64,000 nt of DNA from Chitinophaga pinensis (GCA_945860865.1 CAMARW010000001.1:336294-400293), one strand, 5' to 3'. Positions 6,534 through 29,987 are shown, counted from the stretch's first letter. A program made the numbers and translations. Notes: generated by a model not told the origin, from the letters alone.

Positions 6534-7025
6534 ATGCACCTTATTAAACAAGAAATAGCCATAGAAGTATATGATTCAGAATTGGAGTTAAGCGAGGAAG
6601 ATAAAATATTGTTGCAATTAGCCAGAGAATCTATGGAGAATGCCTATGCGCCATATTCTCGATTTCTGGTAGGTTGTGTGTTACAATTAGAGAACAATAC
6701 CTTGGTAAAAGGTAATAATCAAGAAAATATGGCCTACCCAAGCGGCTTGTGTGCAGAAAGGGTTGCTATCTTTTATGCAGGTGCCAATTACCCTGGTGTG
6801 CCTGTTAAAACTATGGCTATTGTAGCAAGGGCAAAAGATTATAAAATAGAAACACCTATAGTAAGTTGTGGGGCTTGTTTGCAAAGTTTATGTGAATATG
6901 AAAGACAATTTGGTAAGCCCATTAGAACCCTTCTGCAGGCAGAAGGGGGTAAAATATGGATTGCTAATCAAGGAACTAAAGCTTTTATGCCTTTTCAATT
7001 TAATGTGGAGGAGTTAAAAAGGTGA
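6534..7025 (+). CDS. cdd: cytidine deaminase
   Basis: Zinc-binding 'CAER' and 'PCGACLQ'-type motifs ('CAERVAIFYA', 'SCGACLQSL') in a protein of about 160 aa. Confidence 0.85.
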   Translation: MHLIKQEIAIEVYDSELELSEEDKILLQLARESMENAYAPYSRFLVGCVLQLENNTLVKGNNQENMAYPSGLCAERVAIFYAGANYPGVPVKTMAIVARAKDYKIETPIVSCGACLQSLCEYERQFGKPIRTLLQAEGGKIWIANQGTKAFMPFQFNVEELKR

Positions 7026-8626
7026 TACAAACACATAAGGGTAAATATATAGATATCCTGAACCAACGAATTTTCCTTGCAGAAATTAAGGTTCAAAACG
7101 GCATAATTATGGAAATTAATGCGTGTAATGATGCGCCAGATAGGTACATTTTGCCCGGATTTATAGACGCGCATGTGCATGTTGAAAGCTCGTTATTGGC
7201 GCCAAGCGAGTTTGCACGTATGGCTCTTACGCATGGCACCATTGCTAGTATCAGCGACCCGCATGAAATTGCCAATGTTTTAGGTATGCAAGGGGTAGAG
7301 TATATGATTGAAAATGGTAAACAAGTGCCCTTTTATTTTTATTTTGGAGCTCCTTCTTGTGTTCCTGCTACGGTTTTTGAAACGGCTGGCGCCAAAATTA
7401 CGGTTAATGAGGTAAAAGAATTATTGGCTAATCCTGCTATATTTTATCTTTCTGAAATGATGAACTTTCCGGGTGTTTTAGCAGGTGATGAGGAGGTAAT
7501 GCAAAAAATTTCTGCCGCTCATGCCGCTGGTAAACCTGTTGATGGTCATGCACCCGCTTTGCGCGGTAAAGCACTTCAAAGATATGTAGCAGCCGGCATA
7601 AGCACAGACCATGAATGCTTTACTTTGGAAGAAGCAGAGGAAAAGTTAAAGTTGGGCATGCAAGTATTAATTAGGGAAGGCAGTGCCGCCAAAAACTTTG
7701 ATGCTTTGATTCCACTTTTGGATACTTACTATGCGCAAATAATGTTTTGTTCAGATGATAAACATCCAGATTCATTGCTGCTTGGGCATATAAATGTTTT
7801 GGTTAAAAGAGCACTAGAGGCTGGTTGTAATTTATTTAAGGTATTGCAAGTGGCTTGTTTAAACCCAGCCATGCATTATAAAACCAAACACGGCCTTTTG
7901 CAGGTTGGCGATGCTGCCGATTTTATTGTGGTAAATAACTTGCAAGATTGGCAAGTTTTACAAACTTTTATAAGGGGTAATTTGGTAGCAGAAACGGGCG
8001 AAACATGCTGCCCTTATATTGAACCAATTTGCCTCAATAACTTTTTGGCCGAACCTATTTCGCTTGAAGATTTAGCCCATTTACCCCGCGCTATAGAACC
8101 CGTAATCGTTTGTATAGATGGACAATTAATTACCGAAAGTAAAGCCATAAAAAGAATGGATTGCACCCCACAAAATGATTGCCTAAAATTGGTAGTTGTA
8201 AACAGGTATACCAAGGCAAAACCTGCCATTGCCTATGTAAAAAACTTCGGCTTGAACCAAGGTGCCATTGCCAGTTCTGTTGCTCATGATAGTCATAATA
8301 TTATTGCCGTTGGATACAGTGATGCAGATATACTTAAAGCGGTAAATATTGTAATTGCAGAAAAGGGAGCTCTGGTAGCTTGTAATGAAAAAGAACAAAT
8401 AGTTTTACCTTTACCTATTGCAGGTTTAATGAGTAATTTGGATGCCTGGCAAGTTGCTCAGAAGTATACTCACTTAGATCGTTTTAGCAAAGAAGTTTTA
8501 GGTTCAAGCTTAACTGCTCCTTTAATGAGTTTATCATTTATGGCTTTATTAGTAATTCCACATTTAAAATTGAGTGATTTGGGCCTTTTTAATGGCGATA
8601 ATTTTGCATTTGTTGAAAGAGATTGA
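7022..8626 (+). CDS. ade: adenine deaminase
   Basis: Amidohydrolase metal-binding 'GFIDAHVHVESS' and adenine-deaminase-like 'THGTIASISDPHEIANV'. 534 aa. The GTG start overlaps the cdd stop codon (GTGA). Confidence 0.8.
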   Translation: MIQTHKGKYIDILNQRIFLAEIKVQNGIIMEINACNDAPDRYILPGFIDAHVHVESSLLAPSEFARMALTHGTIASISDPHEIANVLGMQGVEYMIENGKQVPFYFYFGAPSCVPATVFETAGAKITVNEVKELLANPAIFYLSEMMNFPGVLAGDEEVMQKISAAHAAGKPVDGHAPALRGKALQRYVAAGISTDHECFTLEEAEEKLKLGMQVLIREGSAAKNFDALIPLLDTYYAQIMFCSDDKHPDSLLLGHINVLVKRALEAGCNLFKVLQVACLNPAMHYKTKHGLLQVGDAADFIVVNNLQDWQVLQTFIRGNLVAETGETCCPYIEPICLNNFLAEPISLEDLAHLPRAIEPVIVCIDGQLITESKAIKRMDCTPQNDCLKLVVVNRYTKAKPAIAYVKNFGLNQGAIASSVAHDSHNIIAVGYSDADILKAVNIVIAEKGALVACNEKEQIVLPLPIAGLMSNLDAWQVAQKYTHLDRFSKEVLGSSLTAPLMSLSFMALLVIPHLKLSDLGLFNGDNFAFVERD

Positions 8627-8800
8627 TGCTGTTTTTACCAAAAATCTGATGCTATTTTATACTGTTTACTGTATAATTGTAAGATGTTCAAAAATAAATT
8701 TTATGAGGGCCAATTTTATAAACCTAAATCTATTATTTCTGGATGCAATGGAATTGCAGGTGATCTTAACTTTAAACTAAAAAAAGTAATTTTATAAAAA

Positions 8801-11800
8801 ATGCAGGCACACAATCATTTGCTTGTTCAGAAATTGGATGCTTTTATAAAAAAGTATTACAAAAATTTATTGCTAAAAGGTGCCATAATTTTTGTGGGTT
8901 TGTTTGTATTGTTTTTTTTGAGCATTACAGCCTTAGAATATTTTGGCAGGTACAATTCTGCAACTCGGGCATTTTTATTTTATGCTTTTCTTGTTATATC
9001 TGGCATACTTCTATTGCGTTTTATACTTTTTCCTTTGCTACAATTGTTTAAAATAGGTAAGCAAATTTCGCATGCGCAGGCGGCGCTCATCATAGGTGTT
9101 CATTTTAAAGAAGTAAGTGATAAACTAATGAATGCCCTGCAACTTTTGGCTCAGGCCAATGAAAGCAATAGTTTATTAACGGCTGCCATACAGCAAAAAA
9201 CCCAAGAGTTATCTCCTTTACCTTTTACAGCAGCGGTAAACTACAAGAAAAATATAAAGTATTTACGTTGGGCAATTATTCCAGTTTTGTTGTTAATAAT
9301 TATCCTTATTGGTTCGCCCAAATTATTGAGCGAAGGAGCTAAAAGGGTTATTCAATATAACCAAACGTTTAAAGAACCTGCTCCTTTTGTTTTTGAAATA
9401 AGCAATGATAAGTTGGAGGCAGAACAGTTTCAAGATTTTGAATTAGCTGTTAAGGTGCAAGGAAATGAAATTCCTGGAGATGTTTTTGTGCATGCTTTTA
9501 ACCAAATATACCGCATGGAAAAAGTGGATGCCACGCATTTTACTTATACCTTTAAAAATTTGCAACAAAGCACTCCTTTCTATTTGGAAGCATTAGGTTT
9601 TGAAGATGATGTGAGGCAAATTGTTGTGCTAAACAGACCTATTATGTTGTCTTATGCTGTGCATTTGGATTACCCAGCTTATTTGCAACAAAAGGATGAA
9701 ACCATTAATAATCCGGGCGATTTAAACATCCCAGCTGGCACGGTTGTGAAGTGGCAATTTACGGGCAAACAAACCGAGTCTGTGCGTTTACAATTTAACA
9801 AGTTTGAGGTTAAGGCAGAAAGCAAAGATTTGGTGCATTACCAATACAGTAGAAAGTTTTTTGTCTCAGATGCGTATGCCATAAAGTTGAGCAATAGTAA
9901 GGTAAACAAGGGCGATTCTTTGTTCTTTCAGATTTCGGTGGTGCCCGATGCTTTTCCGCAAATAAGTATGGAAGAACAGCGGGATTCTGTAACGGGTAAA
10001 ATTTTGTATTTTGGTGGTTCAGCCTCCGATGATCAAGGTTTGAGCAAGCTTACTTTCAATTATAAATTTTTAAAATCGGCTGATCCTAAGAAAGTAGATA
10101 GGGGTTTGGTTACACAAAATATTCCCATACAAATAGGCAAACAAATAAATATTGCCCATGTGTTTAATTTATTTGAAATTGATTTGAACCTAGAGGATGA
10201 GTTAAGTTATTATTTTGAAATATGGGACAATGATGCGGTTTATGGTGCCAAGTCTACTCAGTCTAAACCTTTTGTTTTAAAAGCCCCTTCTAAGCAAGAA
10301 GTAAAAGATCAATCGCAGCAAGATAGCAAGGCTTTGCAGCAAAAAATGGAAGAAGCTCTAAAAGAATCTAAAGATTTGCAAAAAGAGTTAAAAGATGTTC
10401 AGAAGAAATTAAAATCGCAGCAACCTTTAACTTTTGAGGAGAAGAAAAAACTAGAACAATTGCAAAAAAGGCAAAAAGATTTGGTTCAGAAAATAGAAGA
10501 ATTACAACAAGATTTTAAGCAGAAAAACCAGAAAGAACAATCTTTTAAAGAGGAAGAAGAGCGCATTTTAGAGAAGCAAGAGCAGTTGCAGAAAATGTAT
10601 GAGGAGATGCTTACTGATGAAATGAAGCAGTTAATGAAAAAGCTAGACGATATGGTAAAAATGCAGAACAAAGACCAGATTCAGAAGGAGCTAGATAAGT
10701 TAGATGTAAACAACAAAGATGTAGAGAAGGAGTTGGATAGAATGTTGGAAATGTACAAGGAAATGGCCTTAGAGAAGAAAATGGAAGAAACCATGAAGGA
10801 CTTAAAAGACCTTGCCCAGAAGCAAAATGAATTAGCTAAAGAAACAGAACAAAAGACTAAAAGCAACGAAGAATTATTGAAGAAACAAGAGGAGTTAAAC
10901 AAGGCATTTGAGGAGGTTAAAAAGGATATTCAGGAAATGCAAAAAGAGAATAAACAATTAGAAAACCCCAAAGAATTACCTGATACCAAAGAAGCAGAGA
11001 AGAAGATTGAGGATAAGTTGCAACAAAGCAAGGATGAATTAAGTAAGGGAAATAATAAAAAGAGCAGTAAAAGTCAGAAAGAAGCCGCCGACGAAATGGA
11101 GCAAATGCAAGAAAAAATGCAGGAGCAAACGGAGAAAGAAGAGGAGGAGCAAGAAGAAATAGATGAAAAGGCTCTGCGTGAAATATTGGAAAATGTGGTT
11201 CAATTAAGCAAAGACCAAGAGGATATTATGGAGCAAATGAAGGGTTTAGTTGGCTATAATCCTCAATTTGTGAAAATGGCGCAGGAGCAAAAAATCATAA
11301 AAGATAATGCCAGAATGGTAGAAGATAGTTTATTGGCATTAAGCAAAAGAGTGCCAGCTATTCAATCTTTTGTAAACAGAGAGGTAACCAAGTTAAACAG
11401 TCATTTGGATCAAGCTAGTAATAGTTTTTCTACGCGCAATGAGGGGCAAATTAGGGTGCAACAACAGTACGCCATGACCCGTATGAATAATCTTGGCCTA
11501 CTGCTTAGTGAGGCATTGCAACAAATGCAGCAACAATCGCAAGAAAAGAAGGAATCTAAAAAATCGGGCAAAGGTAAACCTTCTAAAAAACCAGGCAAAG
11601 GAAGTAAGCCAAGCATGAGTCAGCTTAAGAAAATGCAAGAGGAAATGAATAAGCAGATGAAAGATGGCATGAATAAAAATGGTAAAGGAGAAAGTAGTAA
11701 ACCCGGCACTGAGCAGTTTGCCCGCATGGCTGCCAAACAAATGGCTATTAGGCAACAAATGCAAAAAATGTTGAGCCAAATGGATGCCCTAGAGAAAGAG

Positions 11801-12136
11801 AAAATGGGTGGCGGAAAACAACTAGGCGATTTGCAAAAAATGATGGAAGCCACAGAAAAAGATTTAGTAAACAAGCGCCTAACACAAGAAACTTTGATGC
11901 GTCAACAAGAAATTTTAACTCGTTTACTGGAGCATGAAAAGGCCGAGAAAAAACAAGAAGAGGAAATGAAGCGCGAGGCAACTAAAGGCAAAGAATTACC
12001 CAAACCTGATCCAAAATATTTAGAGAAATTTGAGCGTAAAAATCAAAAAAATACCGACTTACTTCAATCTATTCCGCTAGAGATGCAGCCTTATTATAAG
12101 CAAAAAGCGAAGGAATTTTTGGATGGAAAATTCTAA
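8801..12136 (+). CDS. large membrane-anchored protein with a long Lys/Glu/Gln-rich coiled-coil region; possibly DUF4175-like
   Basis: Uninterrupted 1111-codon ORF. The N-terminus has 3 predicted TM helices. Residues ~200-500 form a mixed beta-rich domain. Residues ~500-1000 are strongly biased K/E/Q heptad-like sequence, and a Gly/Lys/Pro/Ser low-complexity stretch ('GKGKPSKKPGKGSKPS') follows. No catalytic motif is recognisable. Confidence 0.75.
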   Translation: MQAHNHLLVQKLDAFIKKYYKNLLLKGAIIFVGLFVLFFLSITALEYFGRYNSATRAFLFYAFLVISGILLLRFILFPLLQLFKIGKQISHAQAALIIGVHFKEVSDKLMNALQLLAQANESNSLLTAAIQQKTQELSPLPFTAAVNYKKNIKYLRWAIIPVLLLIIILIGSPKLLSEGAKRVIQYNQTFKEPAPFVFEISNDKLEAEQFQDFELAVKVQGNEIPGDVFVHAFNQIYRMEKVDATHFTYTFKNLQQSTPFYLEALGFEDDVRQIVVLNRPIMLSYAVHLDYPAYLQQKDETINNPGDLNIPAGTVVKWQFTGKQTESVRLQFNKFEVKAESKDLVHYQYSRKFFVSDAYAIKLSNSKVNKGDSLFFQISVVPDAFPQISMEEQRDSVTGKILYFGGSASDDQGLSKLTFNYKFLKSADPKKVDRGLVTQNIPIQIGKQINIAHVFNLFEIDLNLEDELSYYFEIWDNDAVYGAKSTQSKPFVLKAPSKQEVKDQSQQDSKALQQKMEEALKESKDLQKELKDVQKKLKSQQPLTFEEKKKLEQLQKRQKDLVQKIEELQQDFKQKNQKEQSFKEEEERILEKQEQLQKMYEEMLTDEMKQLMKKLDDMVKMQNKDQIQKELDKLDVNNKDVEKELDRMLEMYKEMALEKKMEETMKDLKDLAQKQNELAKETEQKTKSNEELLKKQEELNKAFEEVKKDIQEMQKENKQLENPKELPDTKEAEKKIEDKLQQSKDELSKGNNKKSSKSQKEAADEMEQMQEKMQEQTEKEEEEQEEIDEKALREILENVVQLSKDQEDIMEQMKGLVGYNPQFVKMAQEQKIIKDNARMVEDSLLALSKRVPAIQSFVNREVTKLNSHLDQASNSFSTRNEGQIRVQQQYAMTRMNNLGLLLSEALQQMQQQSQEKKESKKSGKGKPSKKPGKGSKPSMSQLKKMQEEMNKQMKDGMNKNGKGESSKPGTEQFARMAAKQMAIRQQMQKMLSQMDALEKEKMGGGKQLGDLQKMMEATEKDLVNKRLTQETLMRQQEILTRLLEHEKAEKKQEEEMKREATKGKELPKPDPKYLEKFERKNQKNTDLLQSIPLEMQPYYKQKAKEFLDGKF

Positions 12137-12154: not shown

Positions 12155-12889
12155 TTAAAATAAATAGCTCACTTTACTTAAAAACAATCCTTGGGCAGGC
12201 ACACTCATTCCTGCTTCACTTCTGTTTTTGCTATCTAATATTTTTTGAAAATCAGCTGCATTTATTTTTCCTTTACCAACTTCTAGCAAAGTACCTACAA
12301 TGGCGCGTACCATATTTCGCAGAAATCGATCAGCTTCAATGGTAAATACCAAGAATCCATCTGCATTTATTTCCCATTGTGCACTTTTTATTTGGCAATT
12401 AAATGTTTTTACATCCGTGTGTAGTTTGCTAAAGCACTCAAAGTCTTGGTGTAAAAGTAGGCGTTTAGCCGCCTCATTCATTTTGTTTACTGCTAATGGT
12501 TTAGTATATAAATAGCTCAAATCTTGCGCAAATGGGTTAGCTTTTAAGCTTATCCAGTATTCATATTGCCTGCTTATGGCACTAAACCGAGCATGCATAT
12601 TTTGGGCTACTTCAAATACTTCATAAACAGATATATCTTTGGGTAATATGGCATTTAATTGTGAGGCTAATTTCTCGCAATCTATTGGTTGATCCAAATC
12701 TAGATGAAGGTAGTATTGTTTGGCATGAACGCCTGTATCTGTTCTCCCACAGCCAACTACAGCAATATTTTCTTTGAGCAAAATGCTTAGTTTGGTTTCA
12801 ATTTCTTCTTGAATGCTCTTTGCATTAGGTTGTTTTTGCCAGCCGTGATAATGCTTGCCAAAGTATGCAAGATGAATAAAATAGCGCAT
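12155..12889 (-). CDS. truA: tRNA pseudouridine(38-40) synthase TruA
   Basis: Catalytic 'GCGRTDTGVHA' motif in a 244-aa protein. Confidence 0.9.
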   Translation of the reverse strand: MRYFIHLAYFGKHYHGWQKQPNAKSIQEEIETKLSILLKENIAVVGCGRTDTGVHAKQYYLHLDLDQPIDCEKLASQLNAILPKDISVYEVFEVAQNMHARFSAISRQYEYWISLKANPFAQDLSYLYTKPLAVNKMNEAAKRLLLHQDFECFSKLHTDVKTFNCQIKSAQWEINADGFLVFTIEADRFLRNMVRAIVGTLLEVGKGKINAADFQKILDSKNRSEAGMSVPAQGLFLSKVSYLF

Positions 12890-17200: not shown

Positions 17201-17590
17201 ATGAAAAAACTTGCTTATTTATCGTTGTTATTGCCCCTTCTGTTTGCAGCTTGTAACCAATCAGATAATGTAACACCAGAGAAAGAAGCTGCCGATATAA
17301 TCCTCAAAGATAGCTCAGATTTTAACGGTCGCTTGTTTGTTTATACTTACGATTTTAATACCAACAATCGTTTATCTGCCGACGTTTATATATATACGCA
17401 ATACGAAGACATCAGTAGAAATTTGTTTTTGTATTATAAACGAACTCAAAATACAGATGCAGAAGCTGATTTTGGATTTTTGTTGCAAGGTAATTATTAC
17501 ATAGTTGCTAGAACTTTTAGTAAATCGGATACAAGTTTAGTGCAAGTGCTTAGCAAAAGAGAAATACGTAGAAATGTATATTTAAAATGA
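17201..17590 (+). CDS. hypothetical lipoprotein
   Basis: Signal peptide with lipobox 'LLFAAC' in a 129-aa protein. The stop overlaps the next ORF start (ATGA). Confidence 0.55.
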   Translation: MKKLAYLSLLLPLLFAACNQSDNVTPEKEAADIILKDSSDFNGRLFVYTYDFNTNNRLSADVYIYTQYEDISRNLFLYYKRTQNTDAEADFGFLLQGNYYIVARTFSKSDTSLVQVLSKREIRRNVYLK

Positions 17591-18096
17591 GTGTTGATTT
17601 AATAGAAAATAAAGTTGTAAACTCGGGTTTAATCACTTTAAATTTAGAAGATTTTTTGCCAACTACTCCCTTAATAGAGTTGGATATAAAGCCTTGGTTG
17701 TTTAAAGAACTTATTTTACAAGAGAAACCTTTTAGAGAGCATATTAAAGCTTTTGATTGGTCTGTTTACAAAGATAAAATTGTTGTGTTTACTTGTTCTG
17801 CAGATGCCATTGTGCCTGTTTGGGCCTATATGCTATTGGGTGTGGCAGTGCATCCATTTGCCAAAAGATTCTTTTTTGGTTCGAACCAAATTGCGGAAGA
17901 AATATTGTGCTTTGAAGCAATAAATGAGGTGGATTTTTCGCAATATAAAGATGTTCGTATGATTGTGAAAGGATGCGGCGAGAAGCCAATTCCAACTCAG
18001 GCATATGTGGCTATTATGAGCAAATTACTTCCCTTTGCTAAAAGTGTTATGTATGGCGAAGCATGCAGTAATGTGCCTGTGTTTAAAAGAAAATAA
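17587..18096 (+). CDS. DUF2480-like hypothetical protein
   Basis: 169-aa protein conserved in Bacteroidetes next to a TrpF-like gene. The family assignment is from memory of the sequence pattern, not a search. Confidence 0.5.
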   Translation: MSVDLIENKVVNSGLITLNLEDFLPTTPLIELDIKPWLFKELILQEKPFREHIKAFDWSVYKDKIVVFTCSADAIVPVWAYMLLGVAVHPFAKRFFFGSNQIAEEILCFEAINEVDFSQYKDVRMIVKGCGEKPIPTQAYVAIMSKLLPFAKSVMYGEACSNVPVFKRK

Positions 18097-18102
18097 TTTG
18101 TT

Positions 18103-18714
18103 ATGAGTAGTTATATTACCAAGATACTTTATAGTCCAATTACCCACCTAGCCGATGCCCGTTTTGCCGCCGCTGCTGGTATAGAATACTTGGGTTTTTG
18201 TTTAAATCCGTCTCATCCAAACTTTATTTTGCCAATTAAAGCCAAAGAAATTTTAGACTGGATAAGCGGCTCTCATGCGGTAGCTTATTTTGGCGAGCAA
18301 TCTGTTGAAGAGATTATAGCTTTAAGCGAGTTGCTAAATATGGATATTGTGGCATTAGAAAATAATTTACTCCCAGATGAATTGCCCAGTATTGGAAAAC
18401 CAATTATTAAGGTAATTGATATTACCGGGAAAGACACAATTTATTTACACAATGAGTTTGCTGCTTACCACAATTATGCAGATGCATTTGAATTAAAGGG
18501 TAGTTTTAATGAAAATGTAAGCATAGAATTTGTAAAAGGTATCTGCGCTCAATACAAGGTTTTTTTGAGTGTTGATTTCAAGGATTTACCTGTAAGAGAA
18601 ACACTACTTTATTTGCAGCCTTATGCTTTTATGTTAGAAACCGGAGAAGAAGAAAAAACAGGATTAAAAGAATATGATGAATTAAACGAATTCTTAGAAA
18701 AACTGAAACTATAG
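18103..18714 (+). CDS. phosphoribosylanthranilate isomerase (TrpF)-like protein
   Basis: 'ITHLADARFAAAAGIEYLGFCL' resembles the TrpF N-terminal 'ITrxEDAxxAxxAGADxLGFvF' motif. It is not located in a trp operon and is divergent from canonical TrpF. Confidence 0.5.
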   Translation: MSSYITKILYSPITHLADARFAAAAGIEYLGFCLNPSHPNFILPIKAKEILDWISGSHAVAYFGEQSVEEIIALSELLNMDIVALENNLLPDELPSIGKPIIKVIDITGKDTIYLHNEFAAYHNYADAFELKGSFNENVSIEFVKGICAQYKVFLSVDFKDLPVRETLLYLQPYAFMLETGEEEKTGLKEYDELNEFLEKLKL

Positions 18715-23776: not shown

Positions 23777-25672
23777 ATGAGTGATCCAATAAAACATGAG
23801 TGCGGCATTGCAATGATTCGCCTCCTTAAACCATTAAGTTTTTACGAAGAAAAATATGGTTCAGCATTATACGGGTTAAAAAAACTGTACCTCCTCATGG
23901 AGAAACAGCATAATCGTGGGCAAGATGGTGCAGGCGTGGGTGTTATTAAATTTGACCCAGAACCAGGCGAGCAATTTATCTTCAGGCAACGTGCCAACGG
24001 CAGCAGTGCTATAGCCGAAATATTTGATAGAATTAATAGCAAAATCACCAAATCTGGCAGCAAAGAGGAAGTAAATCAAAGCGATTTCCTTAAAAAACAC
24101 GCTCCTTTTGTAGGTGAACTGTACCTAGGTCACCTGCGTTATGGAACCCATGGTGGCAACAGTAAAGACCTTTGCCATCCCTTTATTCGTGATAATAACT
24201 GGATGAGCCGCAACCTGCTATTGGCCGGTAACTTTAACCTAACCAATGTTGATGAACTTTTTGAGGTATTGATAGAACTGGGCCAGCACCCAAGAGACCG
24301 CGCCGATACTGTTACCATGCTCGAAAAAATGGGGCATTTCTTAGATGAAGAGGTGCAACGTAACTTTACACGCTTTAAATTAGAGGGGCACTCAAATCAA
24401 GATATTAGTCAGCACATGAGCAGCCATGTTAATGTAGAAACTATCTTGAAGCGCTCTTTAAGAGATGCAGATGGAGGCTACGTTATGGCGGGTATGATTG
24501 GGCACGGCGATGCTTTTGTAGTGCGCGATCCCAATGGCATTCGCCCATGTTTCTATTACAAAAACGACGAGATTGTTGTAATTACAAGTGAAAAGCCGGC
24601 TATTATGACGGGCTTCAATATTGCCTATAGCGATATTAAAGAATTAGGCTTAGGCAATGCACTTATCATGAAAAAAGATGGCGATGTGCAAGAAGTAAAT
24701 ATCATGCCTCCCGGAGAGCGCTTGTCGTGCTCGTTTGAACGTATTTATTTTTCGAGGGGAAATGATAAAGAGATTTACCAGGAGCGTAAAATGTTGGGCC
24801 ATTTGCTGGCACCAAAAATAATGAAATCGCTCAATTACGATTTTGATAACACCGTTTTCTCTTATATACCCAATACGGCCGCTGTTGCTTTTTATGGCAT
24901 GATTGAGGGCGTTTATGAAATATTAAACGAGTGGAAGGTGCAAGAAATATTAAATTTAGGTCCCAACCCCGACACCAAAGAACTTAAGAAAATATTAGAC
25001 GTGCTTCTGCGCAGAGAGCGCGTAGCTATTAAGGATGCCAAACTTAGAACGTTTATAACTGATGATGCTCACCGCGAAGATATGGTGGCACATGTTTATG
25101 ATGTTACTTATGGTTTAATTAGAAACAACGTAGATACGTTGGTAGTAATAGACGATTCAATTGTACGCGGAACTACACTTAGAACTAGTATTTTAAGAAT
25201 TTTAGATCGTTTACATCCTAAGAAAATAATCATTGTTTCTTCTTCGCCTCAAATAAGATATCCAGATTGTTATGGTATTGATATGAGCAGAATGAAAGAT
25301 TTTGTGGCTTTTCAAGCAATGGTTTCTTTGCTCAAAACGCATAACCTAGAACATTTACTTACATCGGTTTACGACAAATGTAAAGCGCAAGAGAATTTGC
25401 CCAAAGAAGAAATGGTAAATTATGTTAAAGAGTTGTATGCGCCATTTACAGCCGACCAAATAAGTGCACGCATTTCAGAAATAGTTACACCAGATGAGAT
25501 AAACGCTAAGGTTGAGGTTGTTTATCAAAGCATTGAAAACTTACATACTGCTTGTCCGAGGCATTTAGGTGATTGGTATTTTACCGGAAATTACCCAACA
25601 CCGGGCGGATTTAAAGTTGTAAACAAGGCATTTATCAATTACATGGAAGGTAATGCCGGTAGGGCTTATTAA
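23777..25672 (+). CDS. purF: amidophosphoribosyltransferase, long Bacteroidetes-type class II glutamine amidotransferase
   Basis: Ntn-hydrolase N-terminus 'MSDPIKHECGIAMI' with the catalytic Cys straight after a short leader, plus a PRTase domain 'VIDDSIVRGTT'. Confidence 0.8.
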   Translation: MSDPIKHECGIAMIRLLKPLSFYEEKYGSALYGLKKLYLLMEKQHNRGQDGAGVGVIKFDPEPGEQFIFRQRANGSSAIAEIFDRINSKITKSGSKEEVNQSDFLKKHAPFVGELYLGHLRYGTHGGNSKDLCHPFIRDNNWMSRNLLLAGNFNLTNVDELFEVLIELGQHPRDRADTVTMLEKMGHFLDEEVQRNFTRFKLEGHSNQDISQHMSSHVNVETILKRSLRDADGGYVMAGMIGHGDAFVVRDPNGIRPCFYYKNDEIVVITSEKPAIMTGFNIAYSDIKELGLGNALIMKKDGDVQEVNIMPPGERLSCSFERIYFSRGNDKEIYQERKMLGHLLAPKIMKSLNYDFDNTVFSYIPNTAAVAFYGMIEGVYEILNEWKVQEILNLGPNPDTKELKKILDVLLRRERVAIKDAKLRTFITDDAHREDMVAHVYDVTYGLIRNNVDTLVVIDDSIVRGTTLRTSILRILDRLHPKKIIIVSSSPQIRYPDCYGIDMSRMKDFVAFQAMVSLLKTHNLEHLLTSVYDKCKAQENLPKEEMVNYVKELYAPFTADQISARISEIVTPDEINAKVEVVYQSIENLHTACPRHLGDWYFTGNYPTPGGFKVVNKAFINYMEGNAGRAY

Positions 25673-26656: not shown

Positions 26657-27796
26657 TTAGGTAGTTTTTACCTCTATTTTTCCGTCGGCATGTTTAGCAA
26701 ACCTAGACTTGTTTCTATCGTGCACTTGGTCGTATTTTGGCCAAGGCCAGCCTCCAAATTGGGTGCGGTGATAATCTTCAAAAGCTTGGTTAATTTCTTC
26801 TTTGGTGTTCATTACAAAAGGCCCGTATTGAATTACCGTTTCGCCAATAGGCCTTCCTTGTAACACTAATATACTTACCTCTTTGGCACCCGCCTCTAAA
26901 TTTAAATCAATATCTGGCTGAACCAAAATAGCGTGGTAAGGTTTTACAATTTGATTGGCCACTTGTAGGCTCTCTCCTTCATAAAAATAAAGTGTTCTAT
27001 TAATTCCCACACCTGCTTTGGGAAGGGTGAATTTTCCGCCTGCATCTATCTTGATATTGAAAACAGCTACTTCGTTTTTCTCATCTGCAGCCCAAGAATT
27101 GGGTGGCGGAATAGGAGCTTTAAGTTTATCTAATTTTCCTGCAATGATTTCGATTTTGGTGTTTTTTCCAGCTAAATCTTTGTGCAAATAATTGGGAATG
27201 TCATCTCTCCACAACATTTTAAAGTGCGGTTCTACCATTTTACTTTTCTTAGGTAGGTTCAGCCAGATTTGAAAAAGCTCTAAGGGGTTTTCTTTCTCTT
27301 TGCTTAAAAGCGGGAACATTTCTGAGTGTTGTACGCCTTTTCCGGCGGTCATCCATTGTACATCTCCATCGCCGTACCTGCCTGCCGCACCCAATGAATC
27401 TGCGTGGTCTACCAATCCTTTTCTAACCACAGTTATGGTTTCAAAACCCCTGTGTGGGTGACCCGGAAAGCCGGGAACAACTTTGCCATGGTACATTCTA
27501 AAGCCGTCTTTGATAATAAAATCATCGCCCATTTGTCGGCCCAGCATAGAAGTGCTTGGTCCCATTTGGTCGTTGCCCTTTGGAAAGCGGTCTTCGTGGT
27601 GCACACAAAACAAGAATGGGTCGGCGGTTTCCCATTGAAAGCCGAGCGGTTTAACGCTTAAAACTGGATTCATACGTTTATTTTGAAAAGCTTCTTTAAA
27701 AGATTGGGCAATATTATTTACAGGCATGGCAATACTAGCGCCAACTGCCAGCGATAATTTGCCTAAAAAACGCCTACGTGCTAATGGTTTTTCCAT
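26657..27796 (-). CDS. pirin family protein with a Tat signal peptide
   Basis: Cupin His motifs 'HPHRGFETIT' and 'HSEMF'. The likely start is the internal Met giving 'MEKPLARRRFLGKLSLAVGASIA' (Tat motif). The ORF track extends further to 27937. Confidence 0.8.
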   Translation of the reverse strand: MEKPLARRRFLGKLSLAVGASIAMPVNNIAQSFKEAFQNKRMNPVLSVKPLGFQWETADPFLFCVHHEDRFPKGNDQMGPSTSMLGRQMGDDFIIKDGFRMYHGKVVPGFPGHPHRGFETITVVRKGLVDHADSLGAAGRYGDGDVQWMTAGKGVQHSEMFPLLSKEKENPLELFQIWLNLPKKSKMVEPHFKMLWRDDIPNYLHKDLAGKNTKIEIIAGKLDKLKAPIPPPNSWAADEKNEVAVFNIKIDAGGKFTLPKAGVGINRTLYFYEGESLQVANQIVKPYHAILVQPDIDLNLEAGAKEVSILVLQGRPIGETVIQYGPFVMNTKEEINQAFEDYHRTQFGGWPWPKYDQVHDRNKSRFAKHADGKIEVKTT

Positions 27797-27863
27797 GGTT
27801 GCTATTGTTTGTAAATGTAACGTTATTGGGGGAAATATGTTTGTTGTATTATTGCGGAATATT

Positions 27864-29987
27864 ATGCCACAAAACGAACACCATTCCATTATTGCCCGCG
27901 AATTGGGCCTGCCGGTTAAATCTGTTGATGCCACCATTCAATTGATAAATGATGCCTGTACCACGCCGTTTATTGCGCGTTACCGCAAGGAAATTACGGG
28001 GGCTTTAGACGAGGTTGAAATTGAAAATATACGAATAAAAAATAGCTATTTTATTGAGTTAATTAAGCGCAAAAAAACCATTTTAGATACCATTGCCGAG
28101 CAGGGTAAATTGGATGCAACACTGCAAGCAAAAATAGAATCTTGTTGGGATACGAATGTGCTAGAAGACCTGTATTTGCCTTACAAACCAAAACGTAAAA
28201 CTAAGGCCAGTATGGCCAGAGAAAAGGGCTTGGAGCCGCTTGCCTTGTGGTTGTTTAAGGAGTATCCAGAAGACCCTTTTTTACAGGCCGAACGCTATGT
28301 AAAAAATGGGGTTAAAGATGCCGAGGAAGCCTTACAAGGAGCCCGCGATATAGTGGCCGAAATGATTAATGAAAATGCCGAAGTGCGCGAGCGCTTGCGT
28401 AATTTGTTTCAGAAACGCAGTGTGTTTCAAAGTAAATTGGTGAAAGCTAAAGAGGCAGAAGCGCAAAATTACAGAGATTATTTTGCCTTTGATGAACCGC
28501 TTCAAAGGTGTCCCTCGCACAGGGTTTTGGCCATGTTTAGGGGAGAAGAAGAGGGCTTTTTGCGTATAAGCATTTCGCCAGAAGAGGCTGATGCTTTAGA
28601 TATTATAGCAAGGCAGGTAGTAAGGCGAAATGGTGCTAGCAGCCAGCAGTTGCAGTTGGCTGTTACAGATTCGTACAAGCGTTTATTGCTTCCTTCTTTG
28701 GAGAATGAAATTAGATCGCAAGCCAAATCTAAAGCCGATGAAGATGCCATTATGGTGTTTGCAGAAAATTTAAAACAATTGCTTTTGTCTCCGCCTTTGG
28801 GCAGCAAAAATGTTTTGGCTATAGACCCCGGATACCGCTCTGGTTGTAAAGTGGTTTGTTTAGATAAGGTAGGAAATTTATTGGCAGAAACGGTTATTTA
28901 TCCGCATGAGCCGCAAAAAGAGATGGTTAAAGCCGAAGCTATTTTGCGCAAATGGGCAATACAATACCAAATAGAAGCCATTGCCATTGGTAACGGAACG
29001 GCAGGCAGGGAAACAGAAACCTTTGTGCGCGGATTACAATTGGGTTCAGACAAGGCTATTTATTTGGTGAATGAAAATGGGGCTTCGGTATACTCGGCCT
29101 CGGCTATTGCCCGTGAGGAGTTTCCAGATTATGATGTAACCGTGCGTGGCGCCGTTTCTATTGGTAGAAGGTTGATAGATCCTTTGGCAGAACTGGTTAA
29201 AATTGATCCAAAAGCCATTGGTGTGGGGCAATACCAGCATGATGTAGACCAAACAAAATTAAAAGAACGGCTAGAAACAGTGGTGCAATTGTGCGTAAAC
29301 CAAGTAGGCGTAAATTTGAATACCGCCAGTAAAAGTTTGCTTACTTATGTATCTGGTTTAAATGCCCAAACAGCGCAACAAATTGTAAACTACCGCAAAG
29401 AAAATGGCTTGTTTAAGGGAAGAACAGAACTCAAAAAAGTGTCGCGTTTGGGACCGAAAGCCTTTGAACAATGTGCGGCTTTTTTAAGAATTCCGGGAGC
29501 TAAAAATGTGTTAGATAATAGTGCAGTGCATCCAGAAAGTTACGGTATTGTAAGCAATATGGCCAAAAAGCATCACTGCGCAGTTGAAGATTTAATTGCC
29601 AATGAGGCCATCAGAAAACAGGTGGTGGCCACAGATTATGTGAGCGAACAAGCAGGTTTGTTAACCGTAAATGATATCATAAAAGAATTGGCTAAACCGG
29701 GTAGAGACCCGCGCGGACCATTGGTTCAGTTTGAATTTGCCGATGTAAAAAAGCCCGAGGATTTATATGAAGGCATGGTGTTGCCCGGCATTGTTACCAA
29801 TATAACGCGCTTTGGTTGCTTTGTAGATATTGGCGTAAAGCAAGATGGTATGGTGCACATTTCTCAATTGGCAGATAAGTATGTGGCTGATCCAAACACG
29901 GTGGTAAAATTGCAGCAGCAAGTAAAGGTAAAAGTGTTGGAGGTAGATTTACAAAGAAAGCGCATAAGTTTGAGTATGAAGCTATAA
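27864..29987 (+). CDS. tex: Tex-like RNA-binding transcriptional accessory protein
   Basis: N-terminal 'IARELGLP...TIPFIARYRKE', a YqgF/RNase H-like domain, an HhH region, and a C-terminal S1 domain ('GMVLPGIVTNITRFGCFVDIGVKQDGMVHIS'). The start was placed at the ATG at 27864. The ORF track begins at 27726. Confidence 0.9.
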   Translation: MPQNEHHSIIARELGLPVKSVDATIQLINDACTTPFIARYRKEITGALDEVEIENIRIKNSYFIELIKRKKTILDTIAEQGKLDATLQAKIESCWDTNVLEDLYLPYKPKRKTKASMAREKGLEPLALWLFKEYPEDPFLQAERYVKNGVKDAEEALQGARDIVAEMINENAEVRERLRNLFQKRSVFQSKLVKAKEAEAQNYRDYFAFDEPLQRCPSHRVLAMFRGEEEGFLRISISPEEADALDIIARQVVRRNGASSQQLQLAVTDSYKRLLLPSLENEIRSQAKSKADEDAIMVFAENLKQLLLSPPLGSKNVLAIDPGYRSGCKVVCLDKVGNLLAETVIYPHEPQKEMVKAEAILRKWAIQYQIEAIAIGNGTAGRETETFVRGLQLGSDKAIYLVNENGASVYSASAIAREEFPDYDVTVRGAVSIGRRLIDPLAELVKIDPKAIGVGQYQHDVDQTKLKERLETVVQLCVNQVGVNLNTASKSLLTYVSGLNAQTAQQIVNYRKENGLFKGRTELKKVSRLGPKAFEQCAAFLRIPGAKNVLDNSAVHPESYGIVSNMAKKHHCAVEDLIANEAIRKQVVATDYVSEQAGLLTVNDIIKELAKPGRDPRGPLVQFEFADVKKPEDLYEGMVLPGIVTNITRFGCFVDIGVKQDGMVHISQLADKYVADPNTVVKLQQQVKVKVLEVDLQRKRISLSMKL

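Follow-up and report, generated by a model that had tools for sequence, protein, structure and literature searches.

The question raised by the stretch of Chitinophaga pinensis DNA analyzed here (GCA_945860865.1 CAMARW010000001.1:336294-400293; 64,000 nucleotides, hereafter the window) is what kind of protein its longest open reading frame (ORF) encodes and to which cellular system this protein belongs. The ORF, at 8801..12136 on the plus strand, runs from ATG to stop and encodes 1111 amino acids (aa), compared with 977 aa for the runner-up, and was correctly described as the largest of the window in the original prediction, which was made from the sequence alone. As to identity and anatomy, we conclude with high confidence that the protein is non-enzymatic, resides in the inner membrane and belongs to the Bacteroidota subfamily of DUF4175. 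Tentatively, and somewhat short of even confidence, we favor the reading that it is a periplasmic scaffold anchored in the inner membrane, with an ancestral place in the MoxR/vWA ('Bat') envelope system.

The sole Pfam match of the window protein is DUF4175 (PF13779), at E = 1.2e-5 and 24.0 bits, which is 3.3 bits under the gathering cut-off of 27.3; it aligns aa 292-428 with profile positions 200-328 of 825. Of the 38 aligned relatives, 37 match PF13779 individually at E <= 0.01 (best E 1e-15, top score 57 bits), and P0004, an ortholog with 83% identity, scores 32.3 bits, above the cut-off. Across the relatives the matches always fall at aa ~292-534, corresponding to profile positions 181-429 of 825, and several relatives are named 'DUF4175 family protein' in NCBI. 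Membership in DUF4175, which the original prediction had offered as a guess to be checked against Pfam, is thus supported at the family level, and the search found no match to a characterized family. A scan of NCBIfam at E <= 1 found no family, TIGR02302 included; the window protein is therefore not a member of TIGR02302 and represents a more distant relative within DUF4175. No enzymatic domain was found in Pfam or NCBIfam, in agreement with the earlier statement that no enzymatic motif could be recognized, and no peptidoglycan-binding or outer-membrane-binding domain was detected in either database.

Like the proteins of PF13779, which includes the alphaproteobacterial TIGR02302 proteins, the window protein has an N-terminal transmembrane (TM) hairpin, a loop and TM3 in this order, then beta domains with YPxY, DDxG and DND..G motifs and a long low-complexity helical C-terminal half. 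Its three TM helices are N-terminal, and its large non-membrane part is rich in Lys/Glu/Gln and Gly/Lys/Pro, as in the family at large. The Bacteroidota proteins differ in that the Pfam match is limited to aa ~292-534, in that they are ~1100 aa long compared with ~730-870 aa for complete proteins in Gemmatimonadota and Planctomycetota loci (a Gemmatirosa protein of 1268 aa is the exception), and in that their Lys/Glu/Gln-rich helical half does not align with the Gly/Gln-rich C-terminal halves of the other phyla. DUF4175 is a catalogued yet uncharacterized family to which no function has been assigned, and in our literature search DUF4175, PF13779, IPR012683 and TIGR02302 were mentioned incidentally at most. 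The TIGR02302 gene RSP_0730 of Rhodobacter is a direct target, alongside envelope genes, of CenR, a regulator of envelope and division (PMC9275681), and a deletion mutant of a DUF4175/TIGR02302-type gene of Azorhizobium is cited as overproducing exopolysaccharide (Sato et al., 2016, as cited in PMC6842974).

The reading frame itself is well defined. An in-frame TAA lies two codons before the ATG and homologs share the start residue, which together fix the start; 8801..12136 (+) thus comprises the complete coding sequence of 1111 aa plus stop. A word-indexed homolog search returned 824 relatives, and the best 120 of these 824 were nearly all full length (1055-1166 aa), with identity falling from 98% to 40%; those of the 120 that carried a source name were mostly from Bacteroidota. 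The gene is encoded in at least 594 species in a scan of one genome per GTDB species, and an exhaustive search with aa 1-510 matched at least 2623 cluster representatives (50% identity) at E <= 0.001, including 1001 at E <= 1e-30, where the total length of full-length members was almost always 1095-1205 aa. Compared with the 88%-identical ortholog in locus L004, the proportion of nonsynonymous differences (pN) is 0.072 and that of synonymous differences (pS) 0.67, with dN/dS ~0.045, a ratio that is approximate because dS is saturated. By region, pN is 0.02-0.04 in helical regions, 0.11 in the immunoglobulin (Ig)-like domains and 0.14 in the TM region, with pS ~0.65. These sequence comparisons indicate that the ORF is genuine, intact and under strong purifying selection. 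It is an ordinary, housekeeping-type copy of its family, and the disruption or frameshift in relatives that the original prediction had asked about was not found, the ORF being intact in them. The family is large, at least 2623 clusters matching its N-terminal half, and is under strong purifying selection, yet it has no assigned function; added here are its domain anatomy, the recognition of its helices as a constrained folded module and a cross-phylum link to MoxR-DUF58-BatA operons.

The anatomy was derived from an AlphaFold2 model built from 118 sequences (mean predicted local distance difference test score, pLDDT, 78; predicted template modeling score, pTM, 0.47) and from the region lengths, conservation and charges of 118 homologs. 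The three N-terminal TM helices and the ~300-aa beta-rich globular region claimed earlier are both recovered. Kyte-Doolittle hydrophobic segments lie at aa 20-49, 53-87 and 151-180, and the membrane helices of the model span aa 5-49, 53-82 and 148-171. A Lys-rich N-terminal segment (aa 1-25; 8801..8875, +), which carries on average 5.4 Lys plus Arg and a net charge of +3.3 and is probably cytoplasmic by the positive-inside rule, leads into the TM1-TM2 hairpin (aa 26-82; 8876..9046, +), which is identified by hydrophobicity and the model, has 57 aa invariant in the 118 homologs and has helices with pLDDT of 84-90. A conserved helical loop follows (aa 83-155; 9047..9265, +), made up in the model of short helices at aa 91-145 and marked by the near-invariant residues Ala94, Gly99, His101, Asp107, Asn111 and Gln114-Leu115. 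The motif containing the conserved His (His101 here) also aligns in the Gemmatimonadota and Planctomycetota families. TM3 (aa 156-174; 9266..9322, +) falls within the third hydrophobic segment and overlaps the third model helix.

The beta-rich region, aa 196-494, forms three Ig-like beta-sandwiches with pLDDT of ~85-93 in the model. Domain 1 (aa 196-290; 9386..9670, +) is placed by its modeled strands and is probably periplasmic. Domain 2 (aa 300-394; 9698..9982, +) opens with an invariant YPxY...GD...GT..W motif, the Pfam DUF4175 match (aa 292-428) starts at this domain, and P292, Y294, G313, W318, D383 and P386 are invariant in its region. Domain 3 (aa 401-494; 10001..10282, +) carries invariant acidic motifs, DDxG (410-413) and E473/D476-N477-D478...K484, which the Gemmatimonadota family shares (DDYGV, DND..G) and the Planctomycetota family shares in part (DDYGI). 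In a Foldseek search of the PDB the beta region matched three-domain Ig/Fn3 ectodomains at E ~1e-7 with 7-13% identity (OPCML, PTP-delta, gp130 and the SiiE BIg adhesin); this structural match of the model reflects a generic Ig-like fold.

The family-mean count of Lys plus Arg is 10.3 for the proposed inside parts, i.e., the N-terminal segment and both ends of the loop, compared with 3.9 for the turn between TM1 and TM2 together with the stretch that follows TM3. The positive-inside rule would accordingly put the N-terminus and the loop in the cytoplasm and aa ~175-1111 (~935 aa) in the periplasm. Given that Ig-like domains fit the extracytoplasmic side, their presence is consistent with the periplasmic placement.

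Comparison across phyla gave the link to the MoxR system. A tblastn search of a plasmid collection with the beta region found a sole, distant homolog, on the 1.1-Mb plasmid of Gemmatirosa kalamazoonensis (L084); it has 1268 aa and the same architecture and matches window positions 9530-10612 at E = 6e-19. Immediately upstream of this homolog and on the same strand are genes for DUF4159, MoxR AAA_3, DUF58 and BatA_N+VWA proteins. The order is identical in the Gemmatimonadota loci L085, L086 and L087, with gaps of 0-30 bp, so that the operon is present in 4/4 loci. In Planctomycetota, two of the four complete loci (L089 and L092) show the order MoxR-DUF58-BatA(-like)-X-DUF4175-like-Y-Z; a short contig, L088, had no informative neighbor domains. 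With hhalign the window family matched the Gemmatimonadota DUF4175 family with a probability of 99.8% and E = 3.3e-28, collinear over aa 9-503 and 478 columns, and the Planctomycetota family with a probability of 98.6% and E = 1.3e-15 over aa 10-547. The shared region comprises the TM hairpin, the His-containing loop, TM3 and the three Ig domains with their YPxY, DDxG and DND..G motifs. These alignments indicate that the N-terminal 500 aa are homologous to the products of the distal genes of DUF4159-MoxR-DUF58-BatA/vWA operons. For the helical half, hhalign detected no counterpart in the Gemmatimonadota or Planctomycetota families.

Two further observations concern these loci. At L084 (1150-1839) and at L086/L087, DUF4159 and, further upstream, GATase1_like and Peptidase_C13-like genes precede the operon, which suggests that the conserved cluster is larger than five genes. 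The Planctomycetota (Pirellulaceae) homologs P0307-P0426 (loci L088-L092) are widely annotated as 'polyketide synthase' and contain no polyketide synthase domain; in every case the next two genes are conserved, encode ~550-610 aa and ~340-465 aa and have no assigned function.

The remainder of the window protein, the helical half of ~610 aa (aa 498-1110), consists in the model of 17 helices of 14-63 residues. It begins with Lys/Glu/Gln-rich amphipathic helices (aa 498-814; 10292..11242, +), defined by composition and by eight model helices of 16-63 residues. The Lys/Glu/Gln stretch, put at ~500 residues in the original prediction, is shorter: windows with at least 50% of these residues extend over only ~300 aa (aa ~501-800), with a short additional patch at aa 901-950. 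Next is a conserved helical core (aa 822-921; 11264..11563, +) with the motifs EDSLLALSKRVP and QQYAMT..NNL..LS, situated within the bundle region, which is modeled with high confidence at aa ~654-914. A Lys/Gly/Pro/Ser-rich linker (aa 922-969; 11564..11707, +) is disordered by its low pLDDT, which is < 50 at aa 918-938 and 958-971, and includes a short helix at 939-958. The Gly/Lys/Pro/Ser segment noted earlier, GKGKPSKKPGKGSKPS, is found here at aa 923-938, within the segment of pLDDT < 50. In addition to the two linker segments, aa 994-1004 and 1059-1070 are disordered in the model. The linker is the sole length-variable region of the protein, with 48-95 aa in the 118 homologs. At aa 927 (11579-11581) the window protein has Pro, where 55 of the 118 homologs have Cys in the context G.GSC.KPG; the window protein contains no Cys at all.

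Beyond the linker are the conserved C-terminal helices (aa 970-1062; 11708..11986, +), recognized by conservation and by the model (970-998, 1005-1023 and 1029-1062), with the motifs ARMAAQQ.AIRQQ and RQQEILTRLLE.EKAE; with a mean identity of 63% they form the best-conserved stretch. The tail proper (aa 1063-1111; 11987..12133, +) has the semi-conserved consensus ...LL.TVPP.L.PYYK.K.K.YF and helices at 1072-1090 and 1097-1110 with pLDDT of 60-70. What had been described as a short conserved tail is thus conserved, but it is not short: the region measures 140 aa, and the 63% identity belongs to helices at aa 971-1060.

Several results show that the charged helices make up a folded module under constraint and are not a variable spacer. 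In the 118 homologs the lengths of its Lys/Glu/Gln-rich sub-regions are nearly invariant, at 119-121, 95-112 and 70-73 aa, and mean identity is 44-63% in the helices compared with 42-46% in the Ig domains. For the Lys/Glu/Gln-rich helices of aa 498-814, pN is 0.044 in the comparison with L004, in the lowest class of the protein. Leu, Ile, Val, Met, Phe, Tyr and Trp make up 23% of the helices in a heptad-like a/d pattern whose register shifts repeatedly, so these are probably amphipathic packing helices and not an ER/K single helix. Tandem Repeats Finder found no DNA tandem repeat of note in the gene, and local hhalign of the Ig and helical modules against themselves found no internal repeat; the protein is therefore not a repeat-expanded spacer. 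In two independent models the helices are packed as four-helix bundles and do not form one rod. A PDB sequence profile search returned coiled-coil noise, with the best E = 0.004 to a designed coiled coil. The low-complexity coiled coil that had been described does not agree with a region of fixed length without repeats that is the most constrained of the protein and is modeled as bundles.

In the favored reading, the protein would span the membrane and serve as a scaffold or adaptor in envelope stress-tolerance machinery of the MoxR AAA+/vWA kind ('Bat', Bacteroides aerotolerance-type). The cytoplasmic MoxR-DUF58 module would be contacted by the conserved cytoplasmic loop of the protein, while the periplasmic Ig domains with their acidic motifs and the helical bundles would provide binding surfaces for periplasm-facing partners, e.g., BatA-type vWA/MIDAS proteins; the Bacteroidota gene would have left the operon and would now be expressed on its own. 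We consider this mechanism possible, though less likely than not. A more specific version, in which the protein is an unlinked core component of Bat/MoxR-vWA whose His-containing loop couples the MoxR-DUF58 ATPase to a periplasmic Ig/bundle platform and which is often also wired to an RsbW-like HATPase_c_2 kinase as envelope-stress input, seems unlikely.

What is known of Bat proteins fits such a scaffold in part. They are, like the window protein, membrane-anchored and non-enzymatic and built of protein-protein interaction modules, and the periplasm is their presumed site of action (PMC3557215; PMC5700661): in Borrelia BB0173 the BatA-type vWA domain is exposed to the periplasm (PMC5700661), and Bat proteins have been proposed to form a periplasmic or membrane complex (PMC3557215). 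In Riemerella, itself a member of Bacteroidota, tolerance of heat and of oxidative stress is influenced by a bat operon of seven genes (PMC11834572). Together with the alphaproteobacterial findings on CenR and exopolysaccharide, these reports agree with a function in the envelope. The window protein differs from them in that it has no vWA/MIDAS, TPR or BatD domain (Pfam, E <= 1), is not among the named BatA-E proteins and never adjoins MoxR/Bat genes in the Bacteroidota loci examined. An operon shared with MoxR, DUF58 and BatA-type vWA genes is found in the distant homologs only (Gemmatimonadota 4/4, Planctomycetota 2/4).

Several points weigh against a Bat-associated role. The other two of the four complete Planctomycetota loci keep DUF4175-like-Y-Z alone, with no MoxR genes nearby. 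No tblastn match to MoxR, DUF58, BatA or DUF4159 was found in the 64-kb window, and the four are absent within 6 kb on either side of the gene in all 83 related Bacteroidota loci, so that in Bacteroidota the link to MoxR/Bat is one of homology only. Given that only the N-terminal ~500 aa can be aligned across phyla and that the helical half, the most constrained part, has no counterpart detected there, the Bacteroidota protein may have taken on a different role. The proposed topology has the charge rule as its sole basis, and helices that are folded back in the model of a monomer may in reality associate into an extended coiled coil of several chains. On the side of the Bat system, it has been stated that 'Bat function remains elusive' (PMC3557215), i.e., no Bat mechanism is established, and a Leptospira bat mutant had no phenotype (PMC3557215). 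Our literature search found no paper linking DUF4175 to Bat. The operon link is nonetheless the first testable lead to the function of this family: should it prove functional, the Bat system would have in DUF4175 proteins the partner across the membrane that it has lacked so far, and both would become testable.

An alternative is a stand-alone periplasmic scaffold, tether or 'ruler', independent of MoxR/Bat, in which the anchor, an Ig stalk and length-fixed helices space the envelope. Near-invariant sub-region lengths would be expected of a protein whose physical length is important, the gene stands alone and unlinked in the window as a monocistronic unit, the protein has no enzymatic domain, and envelope regulons and phenotypes are associated with alphaproteobacterial members (PMC9275681; Sato et al., 2016, in the citation given by PMC6842974). 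A spacer is, however, difficult to reconcile with helices that are broken, contain 23% core hydrophobics and are modeled as four-helix bundles, or with the lack of any detected domain that would bind peptidoglycan or the outer membrane. The position-specific conservation and the very low pN of the helices point to specific binding surfaces rather than to a spacer, and the conserved cytoplasmic loop would be left unexplained. An ER/K single helix or continuous coiled-coil spacer is contradicted by the 17 broken helices, their shifting register and their hydrophobic content, although models of a monomer leave room for an oligomeric coiled coil. We therefore consider a ruler improbable. The original prediction had listed rulers and tethers that set periplasmic width among its examples, which the results do not bear out; its wider notion of a non-enzymatic, membrane-anchored periplasmic scaffold is shared by the reading that we favor.

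The neighborhood of the gene in Bacteroidota suggested another possibility. ORFs were clustered from the 83 related Bacteroidota loci and the window (84 loci), and no neighbor was universal among them. In 45/84 loci, which span Flavobacteriales, Sphingobacteriales and Saprospiraceae, the DUF4175 gene is followed on the same strand, at a median gap of 3 bp, by a ~141-aa HATPase_c_2 gene (Pfam E = 2.4e-23) whose product has the fold of RsbW/SpoIIAB anti-sigma kinases. A typical example is L002 11401-11814, and L015, L031, L037, L082 and L083 are among the others. The protein could accordingly be imagined as an envelope sensor in which the periplasmic Ig domains and four-helix bundles sense and the loop binds or releases an RsbW/SpoIIAB-like serine kinase. 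Such a sensor would give the co-directional gene pair and the conservation of the cytoplasmic loop a meaning, and chemoreceptors and histidine kinases have four-helix bundles of the same fold as their sensor domains in the periplasm (8bsa, 6s18, 4k0d).

We nevertheless regard this sensor as quite unlikely. No HATPase_c_2 homolog was found in the 64-kb window by tblastn, none is adjacent to the gene in the closest relatives (L004-L014), and the Gemmatimonadota and Planctomycetota homologs are without such a neighbor. Where the HATPase_c_2 gene is present, the block runs on in constant order with unrelated housekeeping genes, i.e., ybeY (44 loci), an mnmG-like gene (33) and a methyltransferase gene (22), and the adjacency may therefore be inherited synteny. 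The bundle fold that the window helices share with talin/vinculin rod bundles and with the periplasmic four-helix bundles of chemoreceptors and histidine kinases is a generic similarity; the matches have 5-16% identity and the best are de novo designs, and the likeness is therefore one of fold analogy only. The window protein also differs from four-helix-bundle sensors in that its last TM helix ends by aa 180 and in that HAMP, kinase and MCP-signal domains are all lacking. A classical four-helix-bundle sensor kinase or chemoreceptor is ruled out, there being no second flanking TM helix and no cytoplasmic signaling domain.

A role in cell division or the cell cycle, like that of AdvA, is very unlikely in our view. 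AdvA is an essential divisome-associated protein of Acinetobacter baumannii with a reported DUF4175 match and two TM helices (PMC7481262), and CenR, a regulator of division and envelope genes, activates the TIGR02302 gene of Rhodobacter (PMC9275681). The resemblance to AdvA is drawn from the literature alone and concerns a partial, N-terminal DUF4175 match next to the two TM helices (PMC7481262); AdvA differs from the window protein in being a gammaproteobacterial divisome protein that matches at its N-terminus only. No fts, dcw or min genes were found near the gene in the window or the 84 loci, and the anatomy of the protein shows nothing specific to division.

The original prediction had also named gliding or secretion accessory proteins of Bacteroidota. 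GldM and PorM likewise have Ig-like domains and a helical domain on an anchor in the inner membrane, and the window protein, which comes from a Bacteroidota organism, might be a GldM/PorM-like periplasmic stalk of type IX secretion or gliding with reversed domain order; in one of the related loci, a Por_Secre_tail gene lies no more than 8 kb away. In addition to the reversed order, the window protein differs in having three TM helices, where GldM/PorM have one, and shows neither sequence or profile similarity to GldM/PorM nor genomic association with them. No GldM, PorM or other type IX secretion Pfam match was found for the protein, no gld, spr or por family recurs beside the gene in the 84 loci, gldK/L/N neighbors are absent from the window and these loci, and the homologous N-terminal module lies within MoxR operons in Gemmatimonadota and Planctomycetota. 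This accessory role is therefore rejected as highly improbable.

There is, finally, practically no chance that the ORF is a spurious or decaying product of composition bias, since intact full-length orthologs in at least 594 species, a pN of 0.02-0.14 against a pS of ~0.65 and a confident structure prediction refute a pseudogene or spurious ORF, even though A and G strongly predominate in the coding strand (AT skew as high as 0.52) and the region yields spurious antisense frames. There are nine such open frames of at least 60 codons, and eight of the nine lie beneath the helical half and are 39-61% Phe/Leu/Ser; they are therefore composition artefacts that mirror the AAG/GAA-rich sense strand, as the original prediction had supposed.

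The immediate flanks of the gene are as previously described. Pfam places adenine deaminase (ade) upstream at 7022-8626 (+) and truA downstream and convergent at 12155-12889 (-), followed by rnc and fabF, likewise downstream and convergent; all are housekeeping genes. Between the stop codon of ade and the ATG is an AT-rich intergenic region of 174 bp (8627..8800, +; G+C fraction ~0.28), which presumably contains the promoter of the gene itself. Partial matches alone (TAnnTTTn) to the Bacteroidota -7 motif were found in 8627..8800, with no exact TAnnTTTG. A sigma-70 scan, with a tool that does not model Bacteroidota promoters, gave promoter-like sites not clearly above shuffled expectation, and a terminator scan found none. 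An Rfam scan of the gene and its flanks found no family. Directly upstream, a cytidine/deoxycytidylate-deaminase-like gene at 6534-7025 (+) and the GTG-started adenine deaminase gene share 4 nt, an overlap suggesting that the two form a small operon for nucleobase salvage. The pair of cdd-like and ade genes also precedes the DUF4175 gene in L004-L006 and L011, and L007 keeps adenine deaminase alone; this clade, to which the window belongs (L004-L007, L011), thus has cdd-like and/or ade genes upstream, with truA downstream in the window itself.

The next 15 kb on each side of the gene contain unrelated genes, and the window neighbors are unrelated housekeeping genes (guaB, cdd-like, ade, truA, rnc, fabF, pyk, kup, recQ, anmK, mscS and others). 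The statement that the gene is separate from any obvious operon holds for this window, but it misses the HATPase_c_2 neighbor of 45/84 loci and the MoxR-DUF58-BatA operons of distant homologs. In nine loci a gene for a secreted thioredoxin-like protein (Thioredoxin_7/DsbH-type) lies divergently upstream of the DUF4175 gene (L001 7413-7898, -; L003 6763-7239, -; and seven more), and no homolog of it was found in the window. In L001 and L012-L014, the genes directly beside the DUF4175 gene are orthologs (52-71% identity) of two other window genes, a DUF2480 gene at 17587-18096 (+) and a 631-aa ORF without Pfam match at 23777-25672 (+); in the window these genes lie 5.5 kb and 11.6 kb downstream of it, and their position therefore represents rearranged residual synteny. 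The DUF2480 gene is directly followed by a 203-aa ORF without Pfam match at 18103-18714 (+). Further downstream, two long ORFs on opposite strands, at 26657-27937 (-) and 27726-29987 (+), overlap by ~210 nt, and thus one start is probably mis-assigned or one of the two ORFs is spurious.

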